Source: an uncultured Chloroflexia bacterium (GTDB lineage: Bacteria; Chloroflexota; Chloroflexia; QHBQ01; JADMIH01). From it: 64,000 nt of DNA. The notes under the pieces were generated by a model. It was given only the letters and a program-made list of their open reading frames with translations. It ran no database searches and was not told the DNA's origin. A program made the translations under genes and the position numbers. The stretch is from NCBI GenBank assembly GCA_963797095.1, contig CAWCNY010000006.1:928001-992000 (forward strand). Reading direction: 5' to 3'. Shown here in pieces: positions 2,972 through 11,802 of this stretch; positions within the stretch are counted from its first letter, which is position 1; the number at the start of each line of letters is the position of its first letter.

Positions 2972-4150
2972 ATGTCGTCACAAACATGCCCAACCTGTGG
3001 GTGGCTCAATCGTGCCAGCAACCGCTTTTGTTCCAATTGCGGCACTGCTCTGGTCCCCAGCACACCTGACGCCGGCGCTGCTGCGTTGGCTACGCAGGCT
3101 ACGCAGGCGCAGCCGGAAGGCGCAGCCACACAAGAGAATGCCGTTGGCACAGATGCCATGCCGGAAGCACCGGGCAATACTTCCGGTGATGCGGCTTCAA
3201 CCTTCGTCCTTCCTCTCTCCCCAGGCACATCAACGGCAGATACTCAGCCTGTTTCATATACGGTGAAGAGGTGGGAGGCAACCCCAACCGAGCCTGAGAC
3301 CCCACGTCCTTTCGTGCCTCCTGCTCCACAATCCGATTCTTCGGCTCCAACCATACCAATAGCCCCACCACCTGTCCCACCCGGCTCTTATCCCTATGGA
3401 TCGGGCGACAGCAACACTGTAGTTTTTGGGCCTGGTTCCGATTCCTCGTCCACCGCCATGCCGCACCGAGGTGAGGGCGGAACCTACGTGCCTTACACGC
3501 CCGACGCTGCTCGTCACCTGGAGGCGGACAAAGGCTCTCGCTCCTGGTTGATCCCGTCTATAGTGGTGGCAGTTCTGCTGTTACTGGTGGTAGGAAGTGT
3601 TGGCGGATTCCTTGTCTTCAACGGCCAACGACCTGCCAGTTCTGCCGGGAATACTCCTGGTGGGGCGCAATCCACTGAGCAAATTGCCTGCTCCGATCTG
3701 ATGTCCAAGCTCGACGCCAACGGGAACGCGGGCGACGATACGACCACATTGCGGGCTATCATCTGCAAGAGCAACGATGAGCAGATCAAAGCCTGGCGTG
3801 ATCTGGATACGGAGATACTCAAGGGCACCCGCACAGGTCAGGCTCTGGAAGAAAACATACAAGCCGTGCAGGACCTGAAAAACAAAGGTATGTACGCAGT
3901 GCCTAACAATAAGAGCATTGAATTCGGTGATGTGCAGGTAAACGGCGACTCAGCCACCGCCAAGACCGTCGAGGTATGGACTGTCACCTTCTACAGCAAG
4001 AGTGATAACAGAGTGGTATTACCGCCGCAAGCTCCCGACACGTTGCGCGAAACCTACCATTTCGTCAAGCAAGACGGTAAGTGGCTGATCACCTCGGTTG
4101 ATATCGTGTCGGACTCGCCGCCACCTACGCCCGGTACAAGCGACACATAG
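2972..4150 (+). CDS. Zinc-ribbon / Pro-rich / single-TM protein with C-terminal NTF2-like (ARC6/IMS-like) external domain
   Basis: CPTC...FCSNCG at N-terminus, Pro-rich linker, TM LIPSIVVAVLLLLVVG, C-terminal A.V.TVE.W...ETYHFVKQDGKWLI. Confidence 0.6.
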   Translation: MSSQTCPTCGWLNRASNRFCSNCGTALVPSTPDAGAAALATQATQAQPEGAATQENAVGTDAMPEAPGNTSGDAASTFVLPLSPGTSTADTQPVSYTVKRWEATPTEPETPRPFVPPAPQSDSSAPTIPIAPPPVPPGSYPYGSGDSNTVVFGPGSDSSSTAMPHRGEGGTYVPYTPDAARHLEADKGSRSWLIPSIVVAVLLLLVVGSVGGFLVFNGQRPASSAGNTPGGAQSTEQIACSDLMSKLDANGNAGDDTTTLRAIICKSNDEQIKAWRDLDTEILKGTRTGQALEENIQAVQDLKNKGMYAVPNNKSIEFGDVQVNGDSATAKTVEVWTVTFYSKSDNRVVLPPQAPDTLRETYHFVKQDGKWLITSVDIVSDSPPPTPGTSDT

Positions 4151-4222: not shown

Positions 4223-6088
4223 TTACTTATCTTGAACCTGGGCTGCGGTTGCCGCCAATCCCGCGCGACGTAGCACCCATCCACCCAGTACCATCATGCC
4301 CGCAGCGAAGCCGAGCCACATTGGCAGGGAAGAAGGTCCAGCCCCCGTTGTCGGGCTTACCACAGGCGGTGCGCCCTGGCCGGTGGAGGGGTTGCCGCCG
4401 GCGGCCTCACTGCCGGTCGAGTCACCGCCTGAACTGGCATCAATTATGCCGTTGCCGTCATTGTCAGGGGGAGGCGCGGGAGTGGGCGCAGGGGTAGCTT
4501 GAGTCTCGACAGTTGGCTTTTGGTCGCCTGCCGAAGAATTGTCTCCGGTCCCTTTTTCAACGGTTGGGGACGGTGTCTCAGTAGGCACGGAGGTCGGGAT
4601 GGGCGCGATAGTTGCCACGTTCGTGATAACCGGCACAGGGACCGCGCCCGTAGCCTGAGCGGGTGGTACAGGCACTTCACTGGTGGTTCTAGGGTCGGGT
4701 GCGAGCGTGCTTGGTTCCGACGTGTCAACCGCCTGTGGCGCAAACGTGGTACCTACCGGATTGGGCGCTAACGATGTGCCGCCCGCGGGCGTGTTGGTAG
4801 CGCTTGGTGGCAGCGAGGGTCCTTGCACACTGGACTCGGATTGAATTGGGGCACCGCCCGCGGCCTCACCACCTTGCGATTCGGCGGTCACGTTGTTGGG
4901 CTGTAAGTCTTTCTGTTCGCCGGTCGGCGCGGGCGCGCTCTCGCTCACCTGCGCGTTTCCACGTTGCGACTCTTGCTTGGCTCCCTGGCTATCTTGCGTA
5001 TCACTTGACTGCGGGGTCTGCGAAGAAGGCATTGAGCGATGCGGCTGCTGGCCTTCGTCCTTCGATTCGCCCGAAGTGGCCCCCTTAGAAGATGTTACCT
5101 CGGTGGGGGCGGGAATGGGCGTATCCGTGTCCGGAACAGTCGTTGGGGAGGGCGGCGCGGTGGTGGCTGTAGCTGACGGAAGGGTTGTAGGCGTATCCGT
5201 CGGAGGGGGTTCAGGTGTATCTGTGGCTGCGGAGCTTGGCGTACCTTTGTGCTCAAAGCCGGGCGGCTCGGTGGTTGCGGTGGGCGGTGCGGGAGGCAGC
5301 CCTCCCCCCTTGCTACTCACAGGTGTGGCGGTGGGGATTACAGGCTGGGGGGTGTCGGTGGGCGGAGCCGGAATGGCCGTTGCCGTTGCCTGCGGCTCGC
5401 TTGTAGGTGTGGCGTCCGCGCCTGACCCATCTTGCCCGGTGGCCCATACCAGAGCTTGCCCCAACGGCCCACCGAAAACCGTGCCATAAGGCAGGTAAAC
5501 GGTAAGGTCGTTTACCGATCTGTTTGTCACCTGAAGCGCACCGCTGCCCAATGACGGGTTTTGCGTTGAGGGTGTAAGAGTGAGCGGTGCGACGCTTGCC
5601 TGCCCGGATTGAACCAGGTTCAGCAGATTTGTGCCTTCGGGTATCCAGCTTGGAATGCCTGGAGAGGTAACGGCGGCCTCACCAATTCGTTCGGCAGTTG
5701 CATGGTTGCTCGACTGCCAGTTGCTGTCCTGCACCCACCATATCGCCAGCGCCACCTGGTACGGTTCGCTCTCCGCATAGCCCCAGTCGATGCCGTAGTA
5801 GAGGGCTGTGCGTACCCTGTCCGCCGCCAGCGGTTGCGAAGCCAGGGGAAGAGACCCGGCGCTCAGATTGGTGCCGGGACTCAGAGAAATAGCCTGAACG
5901 GTGATTGTGCCGGTGCCGCCCGCCGGTATGGTTACCGAGTAGCCTGGCACCGAGTGGAGTGGGGCTGCCGATCCGGCACTTGCCGGTGAGCCAAGAACGA
6001 ACGCTATACAAATGACGCAAGCCACCAAAAACTGTAGCGGAATTGTGAGAAACCGGGGCTTTTGCAACGTTGGCCTACCTTTCAGCAA
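4223..6088 (-). CDS. Secreted Pro/Thr/Ser-rich surface protein with LPXTG-like C-terminal sorting signal
   Basis: N-terminal signal peptide, about 180 aa folded domain, long PT-rich stalk, C-terminal SPTTG + TM + RR. Confidence 0.65.
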   Translation of the reverse strand: MLKGRPTLQKPRFLTIPLQFLVACVICIAFVLGSPASAGSAAPLHSVPGYSVTIPAGGTGTITVQAISLSPGTNLSAGSLPLASQPLAADRVRTALYYGIDWGYAESEPYQVALAIWWVQDSNWQSSNHATAERIGEAAVTSPGIPSWIPEGTNLLNLVQSGQASVAPLTLTPSTQNPSLGSGALQVTNRSVNDLTVYLPYGTVFGGPLGQALVWATGQDGSGADATPTSEPQATATAIPAPPTDTPQPVIPTATPVSSKGGGLPPAPPTATTEPPGFEHKGTPSSAATDTPEPPPTDTPTTLPSATATTAPPSPTTVPDTDTPIPAPTEVTSSKGATSGESKDEGQQPHRSMPSSQTPQSSDTQDSQGAKQESQRGNAQVSESAPAPTGEQKDLQPNNVTAESQGGEAAGGAPIQSESSVQGPSLPPSATNTPAGGTSLAPNPVGTTFAPQAVDTSEPSTLAPDPRTTSEVPVPPAQATGAVPVPVITNVATIAPIPTSVPTETPSPTVEKGTGDNSSAGDQKPTVETQATPAPTPAPPPDNDGNGIIDASSGGDSTGSEAAGGNPSTGQGAPPVVSPTTGAGPSSLPMWLGFAAGMMVLGGWVLRRAGLAATAAQVQDK

Positions 6089-6200: not shown

Positions 6201-6229
6201 TTGATTCCGGGGCTGATTTGTGATATATT
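6201..6229 (+). promoter_or_regulatory. Sigma70-type promoter of the orphan rpoA
   Basis: TTGATT (6201-6206), 17-bp spacer, TGa-TATATT extended -10 (6221-6229). Confidence 0.7.
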
Positions 6230-6294
6230 ATAAGGTCGAAGGTGAATCTTCATGCCTTGCGATGTCTGTTTTGATTATCCCTGGGGGTGCTTCT

Positions 6295-7302
6295 TTGTTT
6301 GATGTAAATTTGCCTGAAATAACGCGCGACACCGGCGGTCACAACTACAGCCGCTACCGTATCGAACCTCTCCAACCCGGTTGGGGCACTACGCTTGGCG
6401 CGAGTTTGCGCCGTATCATGATTTCCTCCTTGCGAGGAGTTGCAGTTACCGGCCTTCGGTTGGCCGAATTGCCCGATGATCCCAGCGAGATCGCCGGGAT
6501 CGAAGAGAACCTGATAGACCTTGTCTTGAACGTCAAGCAGTTGCGCTTCCGCTACTCCGGCGATGGGAGCGCGGCCCAGGCGAACGATCAGTACCATATT
6601 GCTCTCAGCTACCCGAACGAAGAGGCTGGAGAGATAACAGGTGAGTACCTGGAACTGCCTGAGGACATTGAGCTTACCAACCCGGAGCTGGTGATTGCCA
6701 CGGGCACCGGTGGCGGCACGCCCTTTGAGCTTGAACTGCTGGTAGAGACCGGGATCGGGTATGAGACAGCCGAGAACCGTCTGAGCATCCCTGACGATAT
6801 GATCCCCGTGGATGCGATGTATACGCCCATCCCCCGCGTGAACTATGTCGTGGAGCACACCCGCGTGGGCCAGATGACCGACTATGATCGCCTGTTGCTC
6901 GAAGTGTGGACCGACGGCACGATCCAGCCCGACGATGCTGTGAGCCAGGCAGCGCGCATCCTTACGCAGTACGCAACCTCGGTGGCGACCTATGGCCGCG
7001 ATATGGCAGACCTCGGTATCGAGGAACCGCCCGCGCCCGTAGAGGACGACACCAACCGCTCTATCGAGGTGCTCAACCTGAGCATGAGAACCACCAACGC
7101 GCTAAAACGCGCCAACATCACCACCATTGCCCAGGTGCTATCACTGACCGATAACGATTTGCTCCACCTTCGCAACTTTGGTGCCAAGTCGCTTGACGAG
7201 TTGCGCGATGCCCTCACGGCCCACGGCTACGGTCCTAAACTCGATGCCGCCTCAGGCGAAGATGAAGGCGAAGAGGAAGACACAGACGTAGACGAAAGCT
7301 AG
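6295..7302 (+). CDS. rpoA: DNA-directed RNA polymerase subunit alpha, divergent stand-alone copy
   Basis: IEPLQPGWGTTLGASLRR, IPVDAMYTPIPRVNYVVEHTRVGQMTDYDRL, WTDGTI, CTD LSMRTTNALKRANI...RNFGAKSLDE; likely TTG start at 6295 after GGGGG (ORF track starts at 6220). Confidence 0.95.
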   Translation: MFDVNLPEITRDTGGHNYSRYRIEPLQPGWGTTLGASLRRIMISSLRGVAVTGLRLAELPDDPSEIAGIEENLIDLVLNVKQLRFRYSGDGSAAQANDQYHIALSYPNEEAGEITGEYLELPEDIELTNPELVIATGTGGGTPFELELLVETGIGYETAENRLSIPDDMIPVDAMYTPIPRVNYVVEHTRVGQMTDYDRLLLEVWTDGTIQPDDAVSQAARILTQYATSVATYGRDMADLGIEEPPAPVEDDTNRSIEVLNLSMRTTNALKRANITTIAQVLSLTDNDLLHLRNFGAKSLDELRDALTAHGYGPKLDAASGEDEGEEEDTDVDES

Positions 7303-7321
7303 CACGCGAATATGCAAAGAC

Positions 7322-7354
7322 AGACCCAGGCCACTACGGCCCGGGTCTTTTTTT
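7322..7354 (+). terminator. Rho-independent terminator after rpoA
   Basis: agacccaggcc-actac-ggcccgggtct followed by a T-run. Confidence 0.75.
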
Positions 7355-8672
7355 AGCGTCTGCGCCCACCCGGTATTCCGGCCATCGTGATAGAGGCCAG
7401 CACCATACATACCGCAGCTATGATAAACACCCCTCTGTAAGACTGTGTGGCATCGACCAGTATGCCTGCCAGCAACGCGCCTGCCGGTTGGGCAACCGAC
7501 CATACCATGTTGGCGTAACCCATAAAGGTTCCTGCCTGGTGCTTGGGAACCAGATCTGCCAGCAGCGAGAGGTATAGTGCCGTAGGGGCGGCATTGCCCA
7601 GCCCCACCAGCACCATGACAATTATAGCCATCGTCATGTCGTGTATCTGCGATCCAACCAGCGCAGCTATCGCAAAGAGAAAGAGCGCCGGCTGTAGCAC
7701 CTGCTTGCGCCCGATCTTATCGCCAAGCCAGCCGCAAAGCAATGCGCCCACAGAAGTGGCGATTATCAGCACAAGCAATAGTACGAAGGATGTGTCCTCG
7801 GAGATGCCAAGCTCATTGACCCCGAACCGTGTGATGAAGGGGGCTGCGGCTCCAGCGCCCAACCAGTAGATGCCCATCGCCACGATATATACCACCAGAG
7901 GTCGCTCTTGCAGGAGCGCTGATACCGAGGCCCGCACTCCGGTGTGTTCTGAGTGGGTAATTGCCTGCTGGCGAGATTCGCGTACACCAAACGCCACTAC
8001 TACCAGCGTCAGGGCAACCAGCAAGCCCGTGATCAGGAATACCCAGCCGCGGGCCGTGTCCCAAAGGGTGATCGACATGAGCACAAACGCGAGTGCTCCC
8101 ACTACTCCCGCGATGGCGATCAGGCCGCCGATCCTTCCTCGCTGAGCATATGGAGTGATATCAGCGAGGAGAGCCGAATAGGGGCCAAGCGCAACGAAGA
8201 GCGCCACACCCGCTAATGTGACGGTCGCGATCATCACCCAGAAGGGGGGTTGCAGCCCGAGAATGGCTACGCAAATGGCTGCGCCCACGCCGCCAGCCAG
8301 CAGATAAGGGCCCCGCTTGCCGATGCGGGTGCTTGTTCTGTCGCTCAGGTGCCCTACGAACGGCTGGATCAGCCCACCGAAAAGAGAGCGCTCATTGGTC
8401 AGCAGAGCCACTATAGTGGCCGGGATCGCGCCACCGGGGTTGAGGAAGGCGGGCAGGCCGGTAGGCATGGTGTATGCAAGGAGAAAAAGGGGCAGGGCAT
8501 TGTTCATCATGGTGAACACTAGCCCGCCCGCTATCCCGCCCATTGCGTACAGGAGTGATTGAGAAAGGCCCAGGGGTGTGATATGGTGTATATCAGCCGG
8601 GGCCGTGATTTCCAGTTCCATCTCTCTGGCCAGCTCTTCGCCGGCCAGCATTGACGTTTCTTCAGCTTGCAC
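7353..8672 (-). CDS. MFS transporter (GPH/sugar-type)
   Basis: About 12 TMs, GHLSDRTSTRIGKRGPY and GWLGDKIGRK motif-A copies. Confidence 0.9.
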   Translation of the reverse strand: MQAEETSMLAGEELAREMELEITAPADIHHITPLGLSQSLLYAMGGIAGGLVFTMMNNALPLFLLAYTMPTGLPAFLNPGGAIPATIVALLTNERSLFGGLIQPFVGHLSDRTSTRIGKRGPYLLAGGVGAAICVAILGLQPPFWVMIATVTLAGVALFVALGPYSALLADITPYAQRGRIGGLIAIAGVVGALAFVLMSITLWDTARGWVFLITGLLVALTLVVVAFGVRESRQQAITHSEHTGVRASVSALLQERPLVVYIVAMGIYWLGAGAAAPFITRFGVNELGISEDTSFVLLLVLIIATSVGALLCGWLGDKIGRKQVLQPALFLFAIAALVGSQIHDMTMAIIVMVLVGLGNAAPTALYLSLLADLVPKHQAGTFMGYANMVWSVAQPAGALLAGILVDATQSYRGVFIIAAVCMVLASITMAGIPGGRRR

Positions 8673-8704: not shown

Positions 8705-9451
8705 TTACCTGTACATACCGCGCATGCTGTTGAGCCTGATCTTCAGCAGGCCGAGGAAAGCGCGTGTGGCATCGCGTATCACGCGCACCTTGGTGCCGCG
8801 CTCGTCATGCCAGTGCACAGGCACTTCCTTGATGCGCAATCCGTGCTTCTGCGCGACAAACAACACCTCCGCGTCAAAGCTCCAATCGTCGATGATGGAG
8901 CGCGAGAAAAGCTCTTGCGCGGCGGCGTGGGTGAAACACTTGAACCCACATGTTATATCTGAAATGCCTCGCGTGGCGATCCTGTTGGTCAGCCATGTGA
9001 ACACCTTGCCCATACTCTCGCGCCAGAGGGGTTGATGGCGCTCCAGCACCGCGCCCTTCATTTTTCTGGAGCCGATCACAACATCGTAACCTTCGTCAAA
9101 CCAGTGCCAGAATTTGGCGATTTCGTCAGGCGGGGTGGACAGATCCGCATCGGTGAACAGCACAACCTCGCCCCTGGCTGCCAGCATACCCACCTTCAGC
9201 GCGTGCCCTTTGCCCCTGTTCGGGCTTTCCTCAAGCACACGCACATCCTCGCCGCTCCCCAGCAGTTCGCGCGATAGTTGTGCCGAGTCATCGGTCGAGC
9301 CATCGTCCACGACGACAAATTCAACACTGTACTTCTGACCCCGAAAATAATCGGCAAGCAGGGGCAGTGTGCGCCGCATTCGTCTAGCCTCGTTGTAGAT
9401 CGGCACCACTACCGATAATCTTGGACTGGTTGCGTCAAGCTTATTGCTCAC
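8705..9451 (-). CDS. GT2 polyprenol-phosphate glycosyltransferase (DPG/DPM synthase-like)
   Basis: SVVVPIYNE, VDDGSTD, NRGKG, FTDADLS, DITCGFK, WSFDAEVL. Confidence 0.9.
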   Translation of the reverse strand: MSNKLDATSPRLSVVVPIYNEARRMRRTLPLLADYFRGQKYSVEFVVVDDGSTDDSAQLSRELLGSGEDVRVLEESPNRGKGHALKVGMLAARGEVVLFTDADLSTPPDEIAKFWHWFDEGYDVVIGSRKMKGAVLERHQPLWRESMGKVFTWLTNRIATRGISDITCGFKCFTHAAAQELFSRSIIDDWSFDAEVLFVAQKHGLRIKEVPVHWHDERGTKVRVIRDATRAFLGLLKIRLNSMRGMYR

Positions 9452-9485
9452 AGTTTGTGAGTTCCTTTGTCACGGAATTAACCCC

Positions 9486-10724
9486 TTACCCTTGGATGAC
9501 CTCTGCAACCTTGTCAGCATCTGCGAGAGCTGTCTTCCTGGCGATGGCTGCCAACTCGGCAATCCGGCGGGACTCCTCTTCACGTGCAGCCCATAGTTCT
9601 CTCAACTTCGCTTTCATTTCTTCGGGGTCCGGTTGCTGCCGCTCAATTTCGATAACCCAGTGGTCGAGATCAAGCTCCTCCATGAAGCCTCGCACTTTGT
9701 GCGCGTAAGATAGAGCGATCATCGGCACGGCCTGCGCCGCCGCGAATATGAGGGCGTGCAGCCTCATGCTCACCAGCAGATCGGCCTTGCCCACATAGCC
9801 TGAGAACTTGCCCGGAGTATGCTCCAGCTTCGCGTAGATTATCATTTCCTGTGGCACTCCCATCGCCAGAGCCGCCTTCCCCACGACGGCCAGCATCTCT
9901 TCATCGCGGTCGGGCCAGAGGGGTAGCAGCACCGCTCGCGCCCCGAATTCCTCAACCGCTACCTTGATAGAGCCTGCCACCCCCTCCACCAACCTTTCGA
10001 GGCGGCCCGGCTCCTGTCTCCACTCGGTGCCCAGCCTGTGCCGCAGGCTTACCGGCAATAGATAGTGAAGCCCCAACCCCGGCCTGTTGGCAGGTAGATG
10101 CCGCACGCAGAAGATCACCACAGGTTTGCCATCGCCAGGCCAGTTGTCCTCCCCCAGTTCGGGTTTGAGCAAGATGGCGGGGTCTGCCGTTACCTTCACC
10201 CTGTGGGGAGGCACCCCGGCGCCCACCAGCAGCCGCTTCGAGGCCACATCGCGGACGCTGAAGTAATCCGCAGATCGGCAAATGAAGCGCGCCAGCAACC
10301 TGCCGAGCAGTGTCCAGAGCGGTTCCGCACCGAGGCCCCAACCGATCACCTTCAGGCCGAGCAACTTCGCCAGTGCTATATGCACCGCATAAATAGGGAG
10401 ATTGTACACACTCGTGCCGTCCTGAATAAGGCCTCCTCCCCCCAATATGAGAGCTTTGGCCCCGGCCAGGGCGCGGATCGTGCCTCGATTGAAGGGGTTG
10501 CGCGGCACGCTTGGAACTCCGAGCCGCCCGCCCGTCTTGCCGGGGTTGGTCGATATGGCTACCAGGTCATCGAAGCCGCGCTCTCTGAGGCTCTCGATGA
10601 TTACCTGCACAAGCGCCTCATCCCCCGTGTTGTTGCTCCCATACCACCCCAGGATCACTATTCGTTTGCGCTCGCTACTCGCTACTTTCTTTCCCCCCCA
10701 CTTGCTCGCCGCGTGCCTGGGCAA
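9486..10724 (-). CDS. Polysaccharide pyruvyltransferase, CsaB-like (start uncertain)
   Basis: GWYGSNNTGDEAL, GGGGLIQD, SVRDVAS, ADPA, SMRLHALIFA motifs. Confidence 0.85.
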   Translation of the reverse strand: MPRHAASKWGGKKVASSERKRIVILGWYGSNNTGDEALVQVIIESLRERGFDDLVAISTNPGKTGGRLGVPSVPRNPFNRGTIRALAGAKALILGGGGLIQDGTSVYNLPIYAVHIALAKLLGLKVIGWGLGAEPLWTLLGRLLARFICRSADYFSVRDVASKRLLVGAGVPPHRVKVTADPAILLKPELGEDNWPGDGKPVVIFCVRHLPANRPGLGLHYLLPVSLRHRLGTEWRQEPGRLERLVEGVAGSIKVAVEEFGARAVLLPLWPDRDEEMLAVVGKAALAMGVPQEMIIYAKLEHTPGKFSGYVGKADLLVSMRLHALIFAAAQAVPMIALSYAHKVRGFMEELDLDHWVIEIERQQPDPEEMKAKLRELWAAREEESRRIAELAAIARKTALADADKVAEVIQG

Positions 10725-11802
10725 TTCGCATGAACACTTGCAGGTAGCGGCGGGCGATTATGTCCCATGAGTACCGGCTGCGGACGAATTCGCGGGCCTG
10801 CTTGCCTAGCTCGGCGCGACGCTCGTCATCGGCAAGCAGGTCGAGTATCGTAGTTACGTATGTGTCGGTGTCCAGGGGGTCGATCAATATGCCGTTCTGG
10901 CCGGGCACTATGGCTTCCGGTATGCCATCCAGTTTGGAAGCCACCACATAGCGTCCCGCTGCCGCCGCTTCCAGGGCCACCAGGCCGAAGCCCTCTATAT
11001 CGTTTTGCACGGGAATATTAGGCATGATGAAAAGGTCGGCCACACTATAGGCTGCCCTCAGCGTATCGTCGTCCACTCTTCCCAGCAAGGCCACGTGGTT
11101 GCCCAGGTGCAGGGAGGCTATGCGTGTCTCGATCAGGTCGCGTTGCGGCCCTTCACCCACGATTAGGTAGGAAATATCATCGCGCTGCGCCAGCAGCCTC
11201 GGCATGATCTCGGTCAGGAAGTGCACTACACCCTTGCGCTCGATCAGCCTACCTACGGTGAGCAGCACTTTGCGGCCCCGGACCATCTTGCCCGCGTGGT
11301 TCTGAATATTGCGCATCCCAGCCGACGTGAACTGGTCGGCGAACTCCACCATATTGACCCCGTTTGGAATTACCTCGCACAGCGCCGCCGGAACGCCACG
11401 CCTGATGCACTGGGTGCGCGTGTAGCTGCTCACGCAGATGATTTTGTCAATGCGCCTGAGGCAGCGCGGGATCAGCCACTGGTAGAACCGGTTGTCGTAA
11501 GTAATATCGAGGCCATGCACGGTTACTACCACAGGCACGCGCAGGAGGGTGCGTAGGGCCAACCCAAGAGGGGCGAGCAATGCATCCGACAGGTGGATCA
11601 GTTTGATGTGATTCGACCGGGGCACGGTGAGCACCGCGCGCAGGAAGGCGTACACAACGAAGAACGGCACGAACAGCGTCGAGCCGCCCCAGTAGATCGT
11701 CGAGGTTGGTGTGAGACGCCCGGTCTCCTTGGTCAGGCTCTGGCTCAACTTCTGCATCCCGCCCACCGAAGGCGGGTGCTTTCGTGTAATGAAAAGTATC
11801 AT
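10675..11802 (-). CDS. GT4 (group 1) glycosyltransferase
   Basis: PPSVGGM, HGLD, GRLIERKG, EGFGLVALEAAAAG...GIPEAI. Confidence 0.92.
   Translation of the reverse strand: MILFITRKHPPSVGGMQKLSQSLTKETGRLTPTSTIYWGGSTLFVPFFVVYAFLRAVLTVPRSNHIKLIHLSDALLAPLGLALRTLLRVPVVVTVHGLDITYDNRFYQWLIPRCLRRIDKIICVSSYTRTQCIRRGVPAALCEVIPNGVNMVEFADQFTSAGMRNIQNHAGKMVRGRKVLLTVGRLIERKGVVHFLTEIMPRLLAQRDDISYLIVGEGPQRDLIETRIASLHLGNHVALLGRVDDDTLRAAYSVADLFIMPNIPVQNDIEGFGLVALEAAAAGRYVVASKLDGIPEAIVPGQNGILIDPLDTDTYVTTILDLLADDERRAELGKQAREFVRSRYSWDIIARRYLQVFMRIAQARGEQVGGKESSE

Follow-up and report, generated by a model that had tools for sequence, protein, structure and literature searches.

Reciprocal motif loss in two RNA polymerase alpha subunits of a soil Chloroflexia order suggests an oriented alpha heterodimer

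In textbooks the alpha scaffold of bacterial RNA polymerase (RNAP) is a homodimer. Here we examine a stand-alone paralogue of rpoA, the gene for the alpha subunit, which is encoded within a stretch of 64,000 nucleotides (the window; G000:C6:928001-992000) from the genome of a soil Chloroflexia bacterium, G000. We refer to this stand-alone gene as S and to the rpoA copy in the ribosomal operon as O; their proteins are P0001 and P0002, respectively. We consider it likely that RNAP in this lineage combines the two products in an obligate alpha heterodimer of fixed orientation, in which O faces beta and S faces beta'.

The studied bacterial alpha heterodimer is that of Francisella, composed of alpha1 and alpha2 (available parts of PMC1891329 and PMC3294249), in which alpha2 has a glutamine (Q42) at the position of Escherichia coli R45 (PMC3294249). 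Three Chloroflexus genomes also appear with two rpoA genes in the available part of PMC3294249; this 2011 account sees 'no drastic substitutions' in the pair and states that the copies 'may still be functionally equivalent'. The same source describes engineered E. coli heterodimers of R45A and wild-type alpha, in which the alpha deficient in beta binding still fills the beta'-side position, and equates the small archaeal/eukaryotic subunit with Francisella alpha2. Rpb11 and RpoL are known to lack domain 2, as the accessible text of PMC13374769 also states. That text, a 2026 review, treats bacterial alpha as a homodimer and in its accessible portion mentions neither Francisella nor Chloroflexi. 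In a literature search of limited coverage, PMC3294249 and the Francisella papers were the only reports found of other bacterial rpoA paralogues.

The pair described here is similar to that of Francisella in having a pair of non-identical rpoA genes, only one of which lies in the ribosomal operon, along with a single beta and a single beta', in carrying substitutions in subunit-contact determinants, and in its proposed origin by lineage-specific duplication followed by subfunctionalisation. It differs in that S retains R45 where Francisella alpha2 has Q, and in that the asymmetry arises from S having lost HEF 66-68, E80 and G169 and from O having other sequence, with an insertion, where the 190-199 loop would be (E. 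coli numbering). Additionally, the duplication appears to be independent and to have occurred within Chloroflexia, and the biochemistry belongs to Francisella, whereas the case made here is built on genes. The Chloroflexus pair (rpoA1/rpoA2; PMC3294249, in part) likewise represents an ancient rpoA duplication in the same class with the same reciprocal motif pattern, but it is a separate event, in which HEF is degenerate in the operon copy and the loop is missing from the stand-alone copy. Unlike the engineered E. coli heterodimers, which are artificial and rely on a single substitution, S keeps R45 and has lost other interface residues. The division of an ancestrally homodimeric alpha scaffold between a subunit for the beta' side and one for the beta side, the latter with the insert domain retained, is also reminiscent of archaeal RpoD/RpoL and eukaryotic Rpb3/Rpb11 (AC40/AC19), but unlike RpoL and Rpb11, S has a full insert domain, predicted to be folded, and a bacterial C-terminal domain (CTD). 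Heterodimeric alpha as such is already known from Francisella; what is new here is an alpha split that is reciprocal, order-wide and convergent within the class.

Complementary losses in the two alpha subunits

O is located at G000:C6:674467-675831, on the same contig as S and 260 kb upstream of it, inside the cluster secY-adk-map-infA-rpmJ-rpsM-rpsK-rpsD-rpoA-rplQ-truA (adk, map and rpmJ were assigned by the order and size of open reading frames (ORFs) only). The possibility, raised beforehand, that S might be the only rpoA in the genome fails with this finding, and because the second rpoA stands in the canonical operon, S is not a simple relocation of a sole gene. P0002 is 454 amino acids (aa) long and is 42-44% identical to P0001 over two pieces. 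The G000 genome, which is 93% complete, contains one rpoB and one rpoC. In the genus, O carries an acidic C-terminal tail of about 100-130 residues beyond the CTD (residues about 340-454 of P0002); this tail holds a short conserved motif, with the consensus V...G.SEGS....AGI..D..P, and has a basic end in G000. The tails of O are shorter in families f2 and f3, and the tail of S is short and acidic.

P0001 is matched by the Pfam families RNA_pol_L (PF01193, 4.9e-22, residues 35-236), RNA_pol_A_bac (PF01000, 1.8e-14, residues 76-188) and RNA_pol_A_CTD (PF03118, 1.7e-19, residues 261-319). It scores above the cut-offs of two NCBIfam rpoA equivalog models (NF003519, 288.1 vs 277 bits; TIGR02027, 250.4 vs 227.8 bits) and under those of six others. 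The AlphaFold2 (AF2) model of P0001, built with 29 orthologues, has a mean predicted local distance difference test score (pLDDT) of 77.1, with values of about 84-92 in the N-terminal domain (NTD). The NTD and the bacterial CTD are both confident, and the insert domain is complete and confidently folded in the model. A Foldseek search with this model retrieved RNAP alpha chains, among which the chains consisting of the NTD only gave target-normalised template modelling (TM) scores of 0.79-0.87 at a root-mean-square deviation of about 3 Å. When compared with the chains of PDB entry 6WMP, which are known by the names 'alpha 1' and 'alpha 2', S reaches 119.5 bits with alpha 2 and 73.3 bits with alpha 1. 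An AF2 model of O had a pLDDT of 49.1 and was left unused; a shallow alignment, the insertion and the tail are the probable causes.

We aligned 31 S rows, 30 O rows and 26 rows from single-copy genomes (24 from Chloroflexota, one from Bacteroidota, and E. coli K-12), and used as a reference the 78 NTD positions that are conserved in at least 85% of the single-copy alphas. S has lost 15 of these positions (35, 41, 61, 64, 66, 67, 68, 79, 80, 110, 134, 138, 168, 169 and 177) and O has lost eight (29, 155, 178, 191, 193, 196, 197 and 199); the two sets have zero overlap. The HEF motif (H66, E67, F/Y68) is retained in 0/31 S, 30/30 O and 26/26 single-copy rows, and G169 in 0/31 S rows vs 26/26 single-copy rows. 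R191 is retained in 31/31 S rows, as is G193, and in 0/30 O rows, and all 26 single-copy alphas have both HEF and R191 intact. In place of the 190-199 loop, O has an acidic insertion of 9-27 residues in genus g1 and a short acidic sequence in f2 and f3. The insert domain holds 13 of the 15 positions lost in S vs 26 of the 63 kept ones (p=0.003), a concentration that recalls RpoL and Rpb11. Within this domain, identity to the single-copy outgroups is 31-35% for S and 58-62% for O, and over E. coli positions 180-235 it is 61-73% for S and 50-54% for O. Because S and O have each lost a different conserved motif, one alpha of each kind per polymerase is the most likely arrangement.

In P0001 itself, 'LPDDPS...EN' stands in place of HEFS...ED and 'LGASLRR' in place of LGNALRR, and LN.K, TRVGQMTDYD, R..N and NFG.KS are retained. 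These changes and retentions had been read in the original prediction, and the alignment bears all of them out. The degenerate HEF...ED segment, LPDDPSEIAGIEEN, is encoded at 6469..6510 on the forward strand (P0001 residues 70-83; E. coli 64-77), the retained loop, EHTRVGQMTDYDRL, at 6853..6894 (+; residues 198-211; E. coli 188-201), and the CTD at 7042..7218 (+). The DNA-binding residues of the CTD are retained in both S and O; in the S rows, the equivalents of R265, N268 and G296 are present in 31/31 and that of S299 in 84%. The dimerisation helices persist in essentially all 31 S rows, as do K86, the 190-199 loop and the DNA-binding residues of the CTD. At R44/R45, S reads RR in 28/31 rows, including P0001, and KK in three rows of family f2; the KK rows are L064, L065 and L066, the S orthologues of G027, G033 and G031. 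Position 35 is W in 31/31 S rows and I or Y in O, position 219 is Q in 31/31 S rows and L in 20/30 O rows, position 223 is Y in 17/30 O rows, and position 225 is T in 31/31 S rows and A in 20/30 O rows. Such paralogue-fixed residues in the dimerisation helices (H1 and H3) are compatible with a re-tuned interface, though no proof of it.

A search of 41 relatives found rpoA in 39 of them. Nearly all members of families f1-f3, which constitute the order, have one operon-type and one stand-alone-type copy. When only the order genomes that are at least 85% complete are considered, G000 included, 21/21 have two or three rpoA matches that correspond to S plus O, the latter being sometimes split in two by its own insertion. 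Three of these 21 genomes (G021, G022 and G032) are unpublished, and the copy types were confirmed by motif and neighbours in the 31 S and 30 O rows, all from published genomes. The genomes with one type or none (G002, G003, G011, G013, G016, G023, G024 and G034) are 57-81% complete. As to the partners of alpha, G026, a member of f3, has an rpoB located beside its only rpoC and a second, rpoB-like frame (C3:398021-399562) of 1194 aa, which shows 77% identity across the C-terminal 520 residues. Additional partial rpoB matches were seen in G035 and in G037, the latter with 7% contamination.

Orientation of the two copies in the polymerase

The sides of alpha have been separated by mutation in E. 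coli. According to the available part of PMC3294249, R45A and L48A (quoted there) block formation of alpha2-beta, and beta' binding alone is blocked by K86A, by V173A and by insertions of two residues at 180 and 200. The plastid rpoA paper PMC4834550 has no information on contact residues.

Three chains, each supplied with an alignment, were modelled together: the NTDs of O (residues 8-255) and S (residues 17-245) and the last 520 residues of beta. This design was preferred because a two-chain model of S and O was expected to pass from its likeness to solved alpha dimers and could not separate a heterodimer from a homodimer. The verdict on the three-chain model was 'supports binding', with a score of 0.79 vs 0.56 for the best control, a mark attained by 58/80 solved complexes and by 2/110 mismatched pairs. 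At least 96% of contacts are common to the runs, with a partner pLDDT of 80 or more. Beta is placed on O, where the modelled contacts include, among others, residues 35, 38-39, 42-43 (E. coli R44/R45), 46-47 (L48), 63-75 (E. coli 65-77, including HEF), 77-78 (79-80), 132-133 and 161-162 (I168/G169). The share of S in the contacts with beta amounts to only five residues, beside helix H1. The modelled O-beta interface contains 9/15 of the positions lost in S (41, 66-68, 79-80, 134 and 168-169) vs 13/63 of the kept ones (p=0.004), and 1/8 of the positions lost in O.

What the model adds is a predicted mapping of the residues lost in S onto the alphaI-beta surface. The mapping of substitutions on an RNAP complex had been proposed as a check, and the outcome agrees with the earlier expectation that N41, H66-Y68 and D77 face beta. 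The original prediction suggested two roles for S, and the one with more support is specialisation for the beta' side of a heterodimer, because the losses of S sit in the modelled alpha-beta interface and O has reciprocally lost the 190-199 loop.

These observations are consistent with the following scenario. The rpoA gene would have been duplicated long ago, no later than the base of this uncultured Chloroflexia order, and the copies would then have degenerated in complementary ways. O would have retained the beta-docking surface (R44/R45, L48, HEF 66-68, E80 and I168/G169) and lost the 190-199 loop of domain 1; S would have retained this loop and the dimerisation helices and lost the beta-docking residues of the insert domain. 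Because there is a single beta and a single beta', and the losses of O and S are complementary, the core would assemble as O(alphaI)-beta plus S(alphaII)-beta', and every polymerase would carry two different alpha CTDs. The docking of beta on O through residues that S has lost is supported by the model. For the beta' half of this arrangement and the physical pairing of O with S, we infer that S would contact beta' through the 190-199 loop, a link drawn from the E. coli footprint and insertion data quoted in PMC3294249, that S and O would dimerise, and that the homodimers would be non-functional.

Selection, phylogeny and parallel duplications

Ratios of nonsynonymous to synonymous divergence (dN/dS) were calculated with the NG86 method for genus pairs with 0.05<dS<1.5 only. 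Medians of 0.133 in 50 pairs for S and 0.123 in 89 pairs for O show that each gene is under purifying selection; the ratio for S, which had been named as a check, is not near 1. In the 29 genome pairs shared by both genes, the dN of S is somewhat above that of O in most, and its dS is usually higher too. With eight ribosomal and translation genes as reference, a crude codon adaptation index gives nearly equal values for S (0.644) and O (0.642), which places both genes close to the 81st percentile among 214 long ORFs.

Phylogenetic trees were built quickly, from 272 columns with both motif regions removed. The first tree dropped 27 of 91 rows, and the later trees and approximately unbiased (AU) tests dropped 28 of 102; the dropped rows are mostly close relatives of retained ones, plus one truncated row (L117). 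Clades were scored with the SH-like approximate likelihood ratio test (SH-aLRT). The S clade is monophyletic (SH-aLRT 99), as is the O clade (97), and each gives the family order f2,(f3,f1). Since both clades repeat this order, the S/O duplication appears to predate the order. S and O together as one clade are not rejected, with the constrained tree at +0.95 log-likelihood (lnL) vs the free tree and p-AU 0.58. The stem of S is longer than that of O (0.53-0.59 vs 0.15-0.17). Both copies fall among the Chloroflexota alphas and are separated from the outgroup rows of E. coli and Bacteroidota (SH-aLRT 95). Because of this placement, in a tree without Francisella sequences, we regard the resemblance to the Francisella pair as convergent.

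Elsewhere in the class, a full-length second copy was found only in part of family f10, the Chloroflexaceae (genera g21, g26, g42, g48 and g50); genera g12, g40 and g49 of the same family have a single rpoA. The six two-copy f10 genomes examined have one copy with rpsK, rpsD, rplQ and truA as neighbours. HEF is degenerate in these operon copies (YQETD twice, YEEFT, FHDFA and FQEFA), except in that of G122, where it is intact and R45Q occurs; TRIGQ-TD is retained in them. The G122 operon copy reads RQ at R44/R45, which is the same change as in Francisella alpha2. The stand-alone f10 copies retain IHEFS or IHEFT (LHEFS in G122) and are without most or all of the loop, with R191 in 1/6 rows and D197 in 0/6. 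The same reciprocal split is present in the Chloroflexus-like genomes G118 and G124 and in four related genera. In the trees, both f10 paralogue groups fall within a separate Chloroflexales-like clade that excludes S and O (SH-aLRT 98), and forcing all copies that have lost the loop into one clade is rejected (p-AU 0.0015). Because of these two results, we interpret the Chloroflexaceae duplication as a separate event, independent of S and O, with the same split and the genomic locations swapped. Our alignment is thereby at odds with the view that the Chloroflexus copies are equivalent, as expressed in the accessible part of PMC3294249.

In other classes of Chloroflexota, G243 and G491 were the only ones of 353 genomes with two strong rpoA matches; both have an estimated contamination of 4%. 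The extra copy in G243 is a stand-alone alpha-like gene (L113, C20:8307-9179), and the extra frame in G491 (L117, C298:5911-6453) is an NTD-only piece of 215 residues with HEF deleted and R44Q. Apparent second rpoA matches in f5, f8, f12 and f16 were rejected, as they are alpha-CTD-like pieces of other proteins and represent no second rpoA. Alpha-CTD-like segments of about 50-60 residues (E 1e-4 to 1e-7 vs TIGR02027) occur inside unrelated frames of 178-820 aa at L089-L092 (G043, G201, G099 and G113) in other Chloroflexia families.

The stand-alone locus and alternative readings

The ORF of S spans 6220-7302 on the forward strand, with its stop codon at 7300-7302, and its longest ATG frame, which starts at 6262, yields P0001 (346 aa). 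The alignment of orthologues suggests that the true start is TTG at 6295, and not the ATG at 6262 or the GTG at 6220, because a conserved TGGGGGTG is followed by TTG and one orthologue has an in-frame TAA just upstream. The likely coding sequence would then be 6295..7302 (+), which is consistent with the Pfam and NCBIfam matches, the AF2 model and dN/dS. The G-rich TGGGGGTG at 6282..6289 (+), recognized by its nucleotide conservation, is a putative Shine-Dalgarno-like element; it is kept in 13/14 orthologues, the fourteenth having TTGGGGTT, and lies 5 nt upstream of the TTG at 6295.

S appears to have its own transcription signals. A promoter-like site at 6201..6229 (+) is composed of the -35 element TTGATT (6201-6206), a 17-nt spacer and an extended -10 element TG-n-TATATT (hexamer 6224-6229), and scores 9/12 in a consensus scan, with the TG extension. 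The -35/-10 pair is conserved in 13/14 upstream regions of genus orthologues, regions that are otherwise unalignable. Downstream, an intrinsic-terminator-like hairpin with a U7 run occupies 7322..7354 (+; hairpin 7322-7347), tail-to-tail with a convergent gene that shares it; it folds at -29.5 kcal/mol with z -5.66, a value equalled by 0/200 shuffles, and is absent from the list of the consensus terminator scan. A promoter and a terminator at these positions had been proposed in the original prediction; the scan and the conservation of the site support the former, and the folding supports the latter, though the terminator scan does not list it. The gene is monocistronic.

The convergent gene, at 7353-8672 (-), encodes a transporter of the major facilitator superfamily (MFS; MFS_1, 4.2e-32). 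Divergent from S, at 4223-6088 (-), is a Pro/Thr-rich ORF of 621 aa with hydrophobic N- and C-terminal segments. The earlier description of S as located between a surface-protein gene and an MFS gene therefore holds for the MFS gene, and 'surface protein' is plausible for the Pro/Thr-rich ORF, which had no Pfam match. Its further statement that S is without ribosomal-operon neighbours is correct, as none of rpsK, rpsD, rplQ and truA adjoined S when the neighbours of S loci were checked. A zinc-ribbon protein with an ARC6-like IMS domain (PF13355, 4e-05) is encoded at 2972-4150 (+), and a run of glycosyltransferase-like ORFs (248, 412 and 375 aa), named from reading their translations, at 8705-11802 (-). 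The glycosyltransferase-like ORFs downstream of the MFS gene are kept beside S in several members of the genus. The order zinc ribbon/ARC6, Pro/Thr-rich ORF, rpoA (S), MFS and family 2 glycosyltransferase (GT2) is kept fully or partly in most of 19 genus loci, and not in f2 or f3.

A number of observations weigh against an obligate heterodimer with O facing beta and S facing beta'. The heterodimer is read here from genes and a model. S retains R44/R45 in those 28 rows, and this is the sole determinant proven in E. coli and altered in Francisella alpha2. In E. coli, beta protects alpha residues 30-55 and 65-75 and beta' protects 175-185 and 195-210 (quoted in the available part of PMC3294249); the positions lost in S are not significantly enriched in the beta segments (5/15 vs 15/63, p=0.52), and those lost in O are weakly enriched in the beta' segments (4/8 vs 12/70, p=0.051). 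Enrichment in these hydroxyl-radical footprints was therefore dropped as primary evidence for orientation, not being significant. The three-chain model resembles many solved RNAPs and may pass as memory, and O may have been chosen simply for its consensus residues; one control with an unrelated protein scored 0.56, and replacing O still left beta at 0.47. Grouping for the AU tests was decided with a first tree already in view, and the higher synonymous divergence of S could be a sign of its lower expression. Finally, in G243, which belongs to another class, the extra copy has lost HEF and the operon copy retains both motifs, so that one-sided specialisation also occurs.

Some of these points would suit a different role, in which S is an alternative, separately regulated alpha: an O homodimer would serve as housekeeping scaffold, and S would be swapped in conditionally, altering UP-element or activator contacts through its own CTD and linker. 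The conserved promoter and terminator of S apart from the ribosomal operon agree with such a role, as do the CTDs, which are only 51% identical, the tail of about 100 acidic residues that genus O has and S does not, the dS of S above that of O in most pairs, and the intact G243 operon copy. We consider it unlikely, since the O homodimer would have to bind beta' without the loop that O has lost in 30/30 rows and whose R191 is invariant in the 26 single-copy alphas. An accessory subunit would also be expected to be lost in some genomes, and S is present in every one of the sufficiently complete order genomes. The losses of S map to the modelled beta interface and not to CTD determinants, its codon adaptation equals that of O, and the swap of roles between loci in Chloroflexaceae fits a symmetric subfunctionalisation rather than a rule that the operon copy is the housekeeping one. 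This second suggestion of the original prediction fits the reciprocal loss poorly.

The origin of S could also be sought in another lineage, from which it would have been acquired horizontally to coexist with or replace O. The free tree does not resolve S as the sister of O, the stem of S is long, and P0001 is closer to single-copy outgroup alphas (245-260 bits) than to the O of its own genome (209 bits). We regard such a transfer as highly unlikely: the tree constrained to join S and O is slightly better, and the S phylogeny mirrors that of O across f1-f3, so any transfer would predate the order, and the origin leaves the functional reading unchanged. Barely probable at all is a location of S outside the core RNAP, as a moonlighting or decaying paralogue, for example a CTD-based DNA-binding protein or a free beta'-binding factor. 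Universally conserved residues of the insert domain are indeed lost, and proteins of other kinds in related genomes do contain alpha-CTD-like domains, but dN/dS is 0.13 across the whole core region, the predicted NTD and CTD folds are intact, the dimerisation helices, K86, the loop and the DNA-binding residues of the CTD are kept in nearly all S rows, and the gene is retained across three families.

The oriented heterodimer of O and S is thus our preferred reading, and the transition known from Francisella seems to have taken place independently in an entire order of soil Chloroflexia and in the cultivable Chloroflexus group. We lean, with some reserve, towards the view that a homodimer has turned into an obligate, oriented heterodimer at least twice in Chloroflexia besides Francisella, each event stripping one copy of beta-side contacts of the insert domain (HEF 66-68 or R45) and the other of the 190-199 loop, with chance deciding which genomic copy took which role. 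If this is true, HEF/R45 and the 190-199 loop would each be needed in just one protomer of every bacterial RNAP, the beta'-side copy would be on the path leading to archaeal/eukaryotic Rpb11/RpoL, and two different alpha CTDs would stand at fixed promoter positions. Since rpoA is not single-copy in these lineages, the finding also matters for the use of this gene as a phylogenetic or completeness marker. The complementary losses would amount to a natural mutagenesis map of the conserved alpha residues that serve the beta side and the beta' side, and the two copies would offer a directly testable system in a non-pathogen and a bacterial model for the rise of Rpb3/Rpb11-type asymmetry.

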